Sequence record: PQ390715.1
DNA: 64,000 nucleotides
Reading direction: 5' to 3' (one strand)
DNA from: Escherichia phage SHEFM2K
In this document: positions 46,440 to 48,383 of the stretch, in pieces
How the letters are laid out: each line of letters begins with the position of its first letter
How positions within the stretch are numbered: the first letter of the stretch is position 1
Translations under genes and position numbers: made by a program
The notes under the pieces: generated by a model
Database searches by the model: none
What the model was told of the DNA's origin: nothing
Seen by the model: the letters and a program-made list of their open reading frames with translations, nothing else

Positions 46440-48383
46440 TACGCTTTTTTCAGTACGGTGCAAGTACTTTCTACAAATACTTTTTAAAATAGTTTTCTTT
46501 CTATATAGGAGTACTATTATTCAGTACTATTATTCAGTACTATCATTCAGTACTGCAACCATCCAGGGGAACTATCTTTCTATATAGGGGAACTATCTTT
46601 CAGTACTGAATCAACCAAATCACTACTACACCCCATAAAACGGCCTCAGACGCATTCTAACGCATTAATACACCTAAGCTATACATTTGCACCATTCCAA
46701 TCATTCCAGGGCTTTACGGGCCGTTTAAACGCGTTAAATTATTTTCAATTATTTTGTTTTTAGGTATTGACTTGATCCTGAAAAAGCGTATAATTACTAC
46801 ATAGACGCGAGAAAGCGGAAACCCCAGAGGGTGCGGAATTACGCCCAAAATTCAAGATATAAAAAAAGGATACACTCCCGCACCCTAGCAGGTAAACGCA
46901 CTTTCTCAGTACTGAAATATAGTACCATAGTCCGGCCCAGGATGGCAAGCAAATTAATTAAAACTTTTTTCATCCAGGGTATTGCTTTATTTTTCCAGTA
47001 CTGTATAATAGTTCCATCAAGTCGAGAAAGACTCAAGCCCACCGGGTGCATAGTTACGCCCAAAATTCAGTACTGAAAAAATTTTTAAAAATATCCGGCC
47101 AGGTCGTTGACATTGCCCCCAGTTTATAAGATAATGATTCCAGATTCAGAAAAATCTAACTACAGATACTGCGGGGAAACTATCCCCACGCGGTAGGGGA
47201 ACTATTGGAAAAACAAAATAAAATTTTGATTTAGCCGTCTATACTTCCAGCCATCCAGAAATCTAGCCGTTTAGCCGTCTAGATGGATAGCCATCTTTAC
47301 TTCCAGACTTCTGGAGGGCTAGACATATCTACGTCCAAAATCCATCCAGGGTAACTACACCCAAAATCCGTCAGTACTATACCATAGATCTATCTTTTGA
47401 AAGGGAGTATTCAGTACTGCCATCATAGCCCTCACTATGTTACCCTAGGAGGATGAAGACTATCATGTAGTACTGAATACTGTTAGAGGGAATCCACCAG
47501 CTTGTGCTGGTGGCATAATGCTTTAGATTAAAATCAGTACTGACACCATTCTGTTAATATCAGTACTGTTATTACAATTTTCATATGAGGTTCAAAAAGA
47601 TGTACCACCACAGGAGGAACTATCTTTTCTGTACTGTCTCACGACAGGAGGTAGAGTAAATGAATTGTTCGCAGCAACTCATCTCTCTATGTAGAACATT
47701 ATACAGTACTGAATCATAATGTCAATAACTTTCTTTCACCATTCAGTACTGATATTCTTGAGAACTACCCGTCTACAAACATCATTATATCCCACAAATC
47801 ATAAACGTCCCAACGTAAATTTCAACTTTCGAAGATCCAACTTTTATTTCATAGGTACTCCAAAATTTTTAGGATCGAGATTTAGGATGGAGTACTAACC
47901 AACTTTTTGCTGGAGCCTCAAGGGGTAATTGAATTTTACCCCGAAGGGTAAAAGGGTAATTGTAATTAAGGTGAAAGTAATAATTCAGTACTAATCATTG
48001 CGTGATTACTTTTGATTACATTTGATGTAATTTGCAAAATGGAAAAGGAGCTTGGAAACTACAAAGTACGGCAGACTTCCTCTGCCTACTTAGTGGCATA
48101 TCGACACCTTCAGTACTGAATACTTTTGGGGCAGTACTGAATCCTTCCCTAGCATTCTTGAGTAATCTTGTCTATAATAATCAGTACTGAATCATATATA
48201 ATCATTCTGTGATTCTACGGTGCTCATATAAATGTTTATATATGATTACTTATGACTACCTATGATTACGGGGTTTAGCCTGGGGAGAATCCTAGTGATC
48301 GCATTTGTCCAGGCTGAATTTTAACAATTCGCCTGTACATAAAGGTTGTTCACTAGGAGCTTCCCCTGTCTCTATGTGTTTAA
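46440..48383. repeat. ORF-free iteron-rich region (candidate replication origin or control region)
   Basis: no convincing ORF; tandem agtactattattc x3 (46511-46549), ggggaactatctttc x2, tagccgtct and ccatccag repeats (47230-47350), gggtaattg repeats (47925-47960), many CAGTACTG palindromes. Confidence 0.45.
46767..46794 (+). promoter_or_regulatory. plus-strand sigma70-like promoter
   Basis: TTGACT N16 TATAAT, followed by non-coding sequence with GGGTGC/GCACCC motifs. Confidence 0.35.

Follow-up and report, generated by a model that had tools for sequence, protein, structure and literature searches.

A gene-free region at the inner boundary of a jumbo-phage terminal repeat is a probable composite of genome-end control modules

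What is a stretch of almost two kilobases without a convincing gene doing in the genome of an Escherichia phage? We asked this of positions 46438-48383 in a 64,000-nucleotide window of phage SHEFM2K (record PQ390715.1; all coordinates refer to this window). An initial annotation made from the letters alone had described this region as free of open reading frames (ORFs), rich in short direct repeats, and a candidate replication origin, packaging or terminal-repeat boundary, or binding platform for a regulator. Our analysis places it at the inner boundary of a direct terminal repeat (DTR), and we consider it, with a probability of roughly 0.78, to be a genome-end control region: a composite of modules gathered at the inner boundary of the ~20-kb DTR of Asteriusvirus phages.

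Position of the region at the terminal-repeat boundary

The source phage is an Asteriusvirus, a jumbo myovirus of the PBECO4/121Q/G17 type. Comparison with related genomes, which had been proposed as a check, found the region kept at full length and 84-95% identity in more than 30 phage genomes (the full-length relatives measure 348-386 kb), all of them Asteriusvirus or close relatives (PBECO4, 121Q, G17, fEgEco12, Sharanji and others). Weaker, patchy similarity extends to Alcyoneusvirus (RaK2, Muenster), Mimasvirus (CBB, GAP32, XbC2), Eneladusvirus (Yen9-04, Serratia BF), the Munch/Kae01 group and Erwinia jumbo phages. Within this wider set, conserved blocks of 70-93% identity keep a constant order and distance from the genome end across five genera that otherwise share about one third of their proteins.

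The G17 record carries a 20,668-bp DTR whose two copies are 100% identical; its first base matches window position 28294 exactly, and its last base is window position 48090. Nine DTR-bearing records from independent laboratories (G17, E9.1, ELP-22, CRJP21, fEgEco12, BF17, vB_Ec-M-J, WPEC5 and WPEC3) start or end exactly at the base homologous to 48090, an end-position homology that we observed directly. Published reports of ~20-kb DTRs have used coverage (G17), PhageTerm (Sharanji) and PhageTerm together with restriction digests (fEgEco12). Because the ends of these nine relatives map to 48090, inside the region, the sequence supports its placement as the untranslated inner (right) boundary of the DTR, with ~1.7 kb lying within the repeat and ~290 bp in unique DNA; of the roles first suggested, it is the packaging or terminal-repeat boundary that gains support. 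The window holds one collapsed DTR copy. In virion DNA, the right-end copy would stop at 48090 and the left copy would run on into unique DNA at 48091. An ORF-free stretch of 1.3-1.7 kb at the DTR end, adjoining minus-strand small genes, is also present in CBB, XbC2, Muenster, Munch, Kae01 and Serratia BF.

The description of the stretch as ORF-free was borne out. The longest ORF-free gap of the window falls within the region (greedy ORF selection, at least 40 aa), and the ORFs that overlap it are short (44-81 aa) and mostly begin with GTG or TTG. The sole ATG ORF, a 59-aa frame at 47719-47898 that some pipelines annotate, is frameshifted in 121Q; because it is broken there while the DNA is still 88% identical, we do not regard it as coding. 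We also rejected a 19-codon ORF at 47661, whose frame is disrupted by an 8-nt indel in G17, and a mini-ORF following the RNA-C leader described below, which ranges from 3 to 15 codons among relatives and is without an ATG in the window. A scan of the window for tRNA and tmRNA genes returned zero, and Rfam yielded no family at the gathering threshold (window) or at E ≤ 5 (region), the sub-threshold matches being eukaryotic snoRNA/miRNA noise. Several deposited records call spurious proteins here: in JP4, SD-2_S15, E9.1, WPEC5 and others, several annotations place five to eight 'hypothetical proteins' across the homologous untranslated region, and other records call zero. At the left edge, the ATG at 46437 of the flanking minus-strand ORF (46018-46437) overlaps, on our reading of the sequence, a sigma70-like -10 element. 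Because of this overlap, the first DTR gene probably starts at the ATG at 46380, which would move the left border from 46438 to 46381 and lengthen the untranslated region by ~57 bp.

Modules of the region

Conserved sequence lies at or beside the cut in relatives, as would be expected of a terminase site: the end motif GACTT(C/T)-N11↓, the tandem 13-mers of a block we call F, and GCTA↓AG (arrows mark the cut; coordinates of all features are collected in Table 1). GACTT(C/T) opens the final 17 nt before the end in the window and in XbC2, CBB, Kaldavass, Serratia BF and Muenster, which span four genera; Hallingskeid has GACGTT at this position. The end in the window falls inside a strong inverted repeat (Table 1), and the Munch and Kae01 ends carry an inverted repeat too. 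Block F, whose units take the form TTTAGGAT(C/G)GAG(A/T), is 82-93% identical in XbC2, Munch and GAP32, where it lies 50-175 nt from the ends. It is the best-conserved near-terminal DNA element, is fully kept in 121Q despite the broken ORF that overlaps it, and is the best candidate for terminase recognition. At the left DTR boundary, the three genera examined (the window, CBB and Kae01) share GCTA↓AG. CTA stands directly 5' of the nick at both DTR boundaries, on the strand whose 3'-OH would prime repeat copying, which fits the classical model of staggered nicks and fill-in for exact terminal repeats. GATTAC clusters with 10-bp phasing lie on both sides of the cut, in Asteriusvirus only. We propose that the terminase cutting site would comprise the 17-nt end motif, the CTA↓ nick context, the tandem 13-mers and the GATTAC clusters flanking the cut, and that the concatemer would be processed in the style of T7 and T5: the two DTR boundaries would receive staggered nicks, and strand-displacement synthesis would then duplicate the repeat. 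The left boundary itself falls within a 220-bp spacer (28250-28460), and an ACGCATT(A/T) motif is present in three or four copies just inside the left end and in two near the left edge of the ORF-free region (46650-46675).

Promoter-like sites in total are not above shuffle expectation; the spacing and UP-like tracts of two promoters, P1 and P3, are conserved in all genera examined. Host RNA polymerase would read the DTR early genes from two inward-pointing promoters, and from three outward-pointing ones (P1-P3) it would read RNA-A, the RNA-C leader and a truncated paralogue of RNA-A. In the RNA-A candidate, a 5' hairpin whose loop reads GAGAAA is followed by a long stem (AGGGUGCGG/CCGCACCCU plus outer pairs) that encloses a variable loop, and an AGTACT palindrome makes up the 3' hairpin. 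In an alignment of 13 sequences from five or more genera, 94.4% of the cells of its 14 pairs are paired and five pairs show compensatory changes, with a covariation of 0.266 compared with 0.152 in shuffles (0/500) and 0.01-0.09 in slid-partner controls. RNA-C has a small 5' hairpin and a bipartite stem followed by a conserved AGGGGAACUAUUGGAAAAA. The lower half of its stem is CUGC/GCGG, and the upper half covaries among GGGG/CCCC, CUGGU/ACCAG, CUAGA/UCUAG, CGGAAUAU/AUAUUCCG and CAGGG/CCCUG. Here 12 aligned sequences give 12 pairs (87.5% paired), nine of them with compensatory changes, and a covariation of 0.444 versus 0.146 (0/500). Because a U.G wobble of RNA-C is retained on the plus strand in 11 of the 12 sequences, a plus-strand RNA is favoured. 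Both elements therefore pair a conserved promoter with a structure backed by compensatory changes, as small noncoding RNAs (ncRNAs) would; the base-pair covariation is directly observed, and from it we infer transcription of the RNAs.

The P2 unit, which BLAST pairs with the RNA-A unit in XbC2 and CBB, contains an AGTC-GAGAAA-GACT hairpin and a TTACGCCCAAAATTC motif and folds weakly (z -1.5). A scan of IMG/VR with an RNA-A 15-mer returned mostly chance matches and three relevant jumbo contigs, the 121Q genome itself among them. Two abundant ncRNAs of PA5oct, a related jumbo phage, map to stretches of its DTR that are free of ORFs (PMC7318152). RNA-A and RNA-C are like these, ncRNA001 and ncRNA002, in lying within ORF-free segments of a long DTR; they differ in that the PA5oct RNAs are abundantly transcribed (PMC7318152) whereas ours are predicted, and the PA5oct authors report similarity only in isolate MIJ3.

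Directly downstream of the RNA-C leader lies a series of contiguous, in-phase 8-bp boxes that resemble the met box recognized by MetJ (consensus AGACGTCT). In order, boxes 1-7 read AGCCGTCT ATACTTCC AGCCATCC AGAAATCT AGCCGTTT AGCCGTCT AGATGGAT and boxes 8-13 read AGCCATCT TTACTTCC AGACTTCT GGAGGGCT AGACATAT CTACGTCC. The tagccgtct and ccatccag clusters singled out at first are indeed present, but they are not iterons: TAGCCGTCT (two copies) and CCATCCAG (three copies) are parts of this single phased array with its 8-bp period. Twelve boxes score 69/96 against the consensus, the maximum in 500 shuffles of the window being 48, and the array is the top-scoring locus of the window at every array length tried. 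Genuine Escherichia coli operators score 24/32 (metJ/metB) and 26/40 (metF) by the same measure, and the best five phage boxes 30/40. A MetJ operator comprises at least two contiguous in-phase boxes of this kind; the array resembles E. coli operators in its single-phase contiguous boxes and in a mean score of 5.75/8 per box, equal to or above metJ/metB and metF, and differs from them in having 13 boxes where they have two to five, in overlapping no met-gene promoter, in lying ~750-860 bp from a DNA end, and in that its binding is predicted. It is exactly 32 nt (four boxes) longer in G17; BLAST match lengths point to length changes of 32-56 nt in other Asteriusvirus genomes, along with a 1-nt indel at another place, and Mimasvirus and Eneladusvirus have 14 or more such boxes at the corresponding place. 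These motif statistics are observed, and from them we infer binding: the array most likely binds the host repressor MetJ, which senses S-adenosylmethionine (SAM), in a cooperative manner, and could titrate MetJ or form a nucleoprotein roadblock. A binding platform for a regulator, as first proposed, is supported at the level of sequence by the match of the 13-box array to the MetJ consensus, but in the different sense that the likely ligand is a regulator of the host.

The Chi octamer (GCTGGTGG) occurs 11 times in the window, where 0.46 are expected, and 10 of the 11 sites are inside the DTR. The minus strand has nine of the DTR sites (29655-41039), oriented so that they would be active for RecBCD coming in at the left end (28294). 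The plus-strand site at 47506-47513, 577 bp from the right end, has the orientation active for RecBCD entering there and belongs to an inverted Chi/Chi pair predicted to form a hairpin, which is kept in Munch and Kae01. This hairpin would turn RecBCD entering a free right end from a nuclease into a recombinase, and the nine oppositely oriented DTR sites would do likewise for the left end. The orientation rule and oriented terminal Chi clusters have been described in P1 and LLS-type lambdoid phages (PMC12315714); the SHEFM2K sites share with these an over-representation near genome ends in the orientation active for RecBCD at that end (PMC12315714), but here they occupy the 20-kb DTR of a virulent jumbo phage, and the one closest to the right end belongs to an inverted Chi/Chi hairpin. 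The hairpin loop (47502-47505) reads ttgt here and acaa in G17 with unchanged arms, the signature of a palindrome-mediated loop flip.

Table 1. Features of the terminal repeat and its inner boundary in the 64-kb window (TRF, Tandem Repeats Finder; MFE, minimum free energy; a dot or an empty cell marks features given without strand direction)
Feature	Position	Strand	Basis or remark
Direct terminal repeat, 19.8 kb	28294..48090		Left end 28294, right end 48090; homology to relatives
Sigma70-like promoter TTGCAC-16-TATAAT for the first DTR gene	46436..46463	-	Sequence reading; conserved in G17
Variable tandem repeats: AGTACTATTATTC x3.5, (TCTTTCTATATAG)GGGAACTATCTTTC x2	46496..46611		TRF, repeat search
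Promoter P1, TTGACT-16-TATAAT	46767..46794	+	Promoter scan; promoter at the same position in five genera
RNA-A, conserved structured RNA candidate	46801..46926	+	MFE -34.9 kcal/mol, z -4.5
Promoter P2, TTGCTT-16-TATAAT (46982-47009), and truncated RNA-A paralogue	46982..47100	+	Sequence reading
Promoter P3, TTGACA-17-GATAAT	47107..47135	+	Conserved with UP-like A/T tract in all genera examined
RNA-C leader (candidate)	47136..47215	+	Covariation, 12-sequence alignment
Thirteen contiguous in-phase 8-bp boxes, MetJ met-box-like (consensus AGACGTCT)	47233..47336	.	Consensus scoring
(T)AC(G/A)(T/C)CCAAAATCC motif, two copies	47326..47372	+	Repeat families
Inverted Chi pair CCACCAGC-ttgt-GCTGGTGG, hairpin	47494..47513	.	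Fold z -3.2
Consensus sigma70 promoter TTGACA-16-TATAAT, 12/12 match	47698..47725	-	Inward-pointing, 365-392 bp from right end
Block F, tandem 13-mers TTTAGGATCGAGA/TTTAGGATGGAGT	47847..47924		Candidate terminase recognition site; conservation, TRF period 13
GGGGTAA-ttgaatt-TTACCCC inverted repeat, then GGGTAA repeats	47923..47962		Sequence reading, TRF
GATTAC cluster I, 10-bp period, holding palindrome ATTACAT-TTG-ATGTAAT	48003..48036		55-87 nt inside the end; repeat family, TRF
Terminal inverted repeat AAGTAC-GGCAGA-cttcc-TCTGCC-TACTT with end motif GACTTC-N11	48064..48091		Cut between 48090 and 48091; fold z -3.9
Untranslated overrun into unique DNA	48091..48383		Three CAGTACTG sites, GATTAC cluster II (48241-48269), 22-nt inverted repeat (48277-48298 / 48350-48371)

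Several points weigh against reading the region as a genome-end control region built from these modules. The end at 48090 is assigned to SHEFM2K itself by homology, and phage UE-S1 was reported with an 8.3-kb DTR, unlike the ~20-kb repeats of its relatives, an assignment that the fEgEco12 authors hold to be doubtful (PMC13070987). The terminal hairpin is not conserved in Mimasvirus, and the CTA↓ context is 3-5 nt long. A consensus scan of the plus strand found no clear intrinsic terminator after RNA-A or RNA-C, the stems could instead be inverted repeats acting at the DNA level, and the ratio of 13 G.U to 7 A.C cells in RNA-A does not settle the strand. The met-box-like array is not at a met-regulon promoter: P3 lies ~90-200 nt upstream of it, and its neighbourhood has no met gene. 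Its ligand could instead be a packaging factor or a ribbon-helix-helix protein of the phage. The array-bearing phage XbC2, moreover, was reported from Xanthomonas, whose order is absent from the MetJ-bearing groups listed in PMC4239095.

If the modules work as we propose, the region gathers cis signals for packaging, for protection of ends from RecBCD and for early transcription, plus two small RNAs, and would be an obvious target for engineering or attenuating phages that are candidates for therapy, as well as for orienting and annotating their genomes correctly. In the literature we searched, ends of the Rak2/PBECO4 type have been mapped, but we found no description of what the 2-kb gene-free boundary contains.

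Putative host-repressor arrays and alternative explanations

The slot taken by the met-box-like array holds boxes resembling operators for another host repressor in some relatives. Both here and in the RNA-A loop, Fur boxes (16-17/19 against GATAATGATAATCATTATC) are present in Muenster (2560-3100 of the sequence compared), Munch and Kae01 (2567-2930) and Hallingskeid (1660-2010); nowhere in the 64-kb window is there a Fur box of at least 16/19, and a scan of the region gave no match to the DnaA, LexA, CRP, ArgR, PurR, TyrR, NtrC, NrdR or MetR consensus and one IHF-like match. BLAST matches to the array fall in untranslated end regions of unrelated phages. In the T5-like Vibrio phages Pontus (17 boxes, at 500-640 of the sequence compared) and pVp-1 (9 boxes, at ~75830-75900 of the record), the arrays adjoin perfect DnaA boxes and a LexA box, and in the phiKT-like podovirus PGT2 eight boxes lie 40-100 nt from the end. 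The array start, CATTTAGCCGTCTAAACGTCTAGCC, is near-identical in PGT2 and the Mimasvirus/Eneladusvirus phages. In T5 itself (NC_005859, 9400-9720), several boxes of the injection-stop region resemble Fur sites (15-16/19; AAATGAGAATCATTATCATTTGC among them), and the region also has a DnaA box and a LexA box that is perfect (CTGTATAAATATACAG); a preprint on this region discusses DnaA boxes only (Davison, 10.1101/866236). In the literature we searched, MetJ or Fur boxes are not reported from the terminal repeats of any phage.

We tentatively suggest that long-DTR phages of gamma-proteobacteria (the examples being Rak2-like jumbo myoviruses, T5-like siphoviruses and phiKT-like podoviruses) may carry interchangeable operator arrays for metabolite-sensing host repressors at the untranslated boundary of the terminal repeat, where they would recruit or titrate host regulators with the first DNA in the cell. 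Such arrays would reprogramme SAM or iron metabolism, or gate DNA entry and early transcription by the metabolic state of the host, and in the jumbo phages the array would be coupled to a conserved structured leader RNA. The MetJ-like array here and the Fur arrays found at the homologous slot of sister phages and in the injection-stop region of T5 would then be instances of a recurring use of host repressor operators that seems to have gone unreported.

The MetJ-like array may serve as a sponge, as a roadblock to transcription or translocation, or as an injection stop. As the chief account of the region, a sponge is rather unlikely. Replicating DNA, with two DTR copies per genome, would titrate MetJ and so derepress methionine and SAM synthesis, and the Fur arrays of sister phages would act likewise on iron uptake. 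The boxes fit the consensus as well as or better than genuine operators in an array 2.5-3 times longer, relatives differ by whole boxes (13-17 or more), and MetJ-type and Fur-type arrays interchange at one slot in two unrelated phage families. Binding and expression are predicted, however, and the benefit to the phage is speculative. The array also keeps a fixed position next to the structured leader and close to the DNA end, which suggests a function in cis over pure titration.

A second possibility, which we judge unlikely as a replacement for the genome-end reading, is compatible with it and assigns a function to the same anatomy. On the model put forward for T5, entry would begin with the DTR, and host proteins bound at the boundary (MetJ here; Fur or DnaA elsewhere) would arrest entry until early proteins encoded in the DTR release it. 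The closest architectural parallel to our region, without homology, is indeed Repeat Region 3 of T5 with its injection stop signal (iss; Heusterspreute 1987; Wang 2005; Davison 2020 preprint 10.1101/866236). Both are large untranslated stretches at the inner end of a long DTR that are situated for the most part within the repeat and overrun into unique DNA (1.2 kb with a 270-bp overrun in T5, about 1.7 kb with about 290 bp here), both are dense in direct and inverted repeats and palindromes whose order is kept among relatives, and both combine host-protein boxes with many adjoining small early genes read by host RNA polymerase. Fur-like, LexA and DnaA boxes occur in the T5 iss and met-box arrays at that place in T5-like Vibrio phages, the roughly 50 small DTR genes with host-type promoters resemble pre-early genes, and the DTR genes of PA5oct are highly transcribed early (PMC7318152). 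On the other hand, apart from the met-box array in the Vibrio relatives there is no sequence homology to the T5 iss. The paired DnaA boxes of T5 (about eight, with inverted repeats of the IRD'/IRC' type) are not encountered: the region has zero matches to TTWTNCACA or a relaxed form (46438-48383). The region has MetJ-like boxes, promoter-driven structured RNA candidates and an inverted Chi pair. Two-step DNA transfer is not known for SHEFM2K, a jumbo myovirus related to T4, nor did the literature examined report it in any Rak2-like myovirus, and the T5 mechanism is itself an unproven model from a preprint. Host-repressor arrays offer a testable handle on the long-open question of how a T5-type 'injection stop signal' functions.

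A replication origin, one of the roles first proposed, is improbable. Under this model, the transcripts started at P1-P3 would give rise to R-loops or primers within a region that is rich in repeats and binds proteins, on the pattern of T4 ori(uvsY)/ori(34) or the T7 primary origin. The region does have strong promoters with structured transcripts and A/T-rich tracts, and cumulative GC skew reaches its minimum at ~47-48 kb, where the skew changes sign although the genes to either side keep to the minus strand. But this switch (negative at 1-48000, positive at 48000-64000) falls exactly on the junction of DTR and unique DNA, where gene families change as well. To either side of the junction, as far as about 53300, the genes run on the minus strand, and a positive skew over minus-strand genes means that the small-gene arrays to the right of the junction have a C-rich coding strand. 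We found neither DnaA boxes nor regular iterons nor an adjacent initiator gene, the neighbours being small unannotated ORFs, and the combination that defines an iteron origin (near-identical, regular iterons of ~17-22 bp, an A/T-rich unwinding element and an initiator gene) does not occur in the region. Repeat copy number varies among close relatives, and end functions explain the conserved modules better; we therefore see no positive evidence for an origin here. Lastly, functionless spacer made of gene remnants and slippage repeats, which could account for copy-number variation between close relatives at 46496-46611 and 47233-47336 and for the small ORFs called by several annotation pipelines, is largely refuted by blocks 70-93% identical in the same order and at the same end distance across five genera, by compensatory base-pair changes, and by a 59-aa ORF that is broken while its DNA is conserved.

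Other terminal architectures and the short repeats

Concatemer junctions of T7 and T3 contain a terminal repeat of 160-230 bp flanked by the short-repeat arrays SRL and SRR, with early promoters near the entering end. The region we describe as a genome-end control region is similar in having an exact terminal repeat at defined sites, repeat arrays at the boundary and inward host promoters a few hundred bp from the end, and it differs in its 20-kb repeat, its repeat units and end sequences, and its lack of promoters for a phage RNA polymerase.

All of the repeat classes named in the initial annotation were found where it had placed them, but the label 'iteron' is not justified: they are short, heterogeneous units of 8-15 bp whose copy number is not constant among close relatives. 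AGTACTATTATTC occurs as two exact copies and one variant (3.5 copies of period 13 by TRF). G17 is 66 nt shorter within 46496-46611, so copy number there is not conserved. Besides these, the region has two copies of GGGGAACTATCTTTC plus GGGGAACTAT at 47196, two of GGGTAATTG, four of a CCAAAATYC motif, and four of GATTAC in its two clusters of 10-bp period. The (T)AC(G/A)(T/C)CCAAAATCC motif recurs in the RNA-A loop (46840) and the P2 unit (47055), and the operator array of CBB, GAP32, Serratia BF and Munch is followed by a copy of it. We considered and rejected the idea that the GGGGAAC repeats are an anti-CRISPR mimic (a solitary CRISPR repeat), as they bear no resemblance to E. coli type I-E or I-F repeats.

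The palindrome CAGTACTG, whose density had drawn attention, does have 13 sites in the region, but it is not specific to it, with 64 in the window against 0.9 expected. Its core AGTACT occurs 274 times in the window where 20 are expected, a 13-fold over-representation evident for example across 28425-53300, in spacers and in all three frames of coding DNA. At 10.8 sites per kb in the region, it compares with 6.4 in the neighbouring DTR genes and 7.1 on the other side. Because density is likewise high in neighbouring DNA and across the window, the motif is not local, and the terminal regions of all related Rak2-like genera are equally dense (4.5-9 sites per kb); AGTACT/CAGTACTG is a clade-wide, genome-regional motif. 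Two blocks of the window, 14001-20900 and 23501-28293, have zero copies. Many AGTACT sites, as we read the sequence, abut the -35 (AGTACTTGCA/AGTACTTGAC) or -10 (CAGTACTGTATAAT) elements of sigma70-like promoters.

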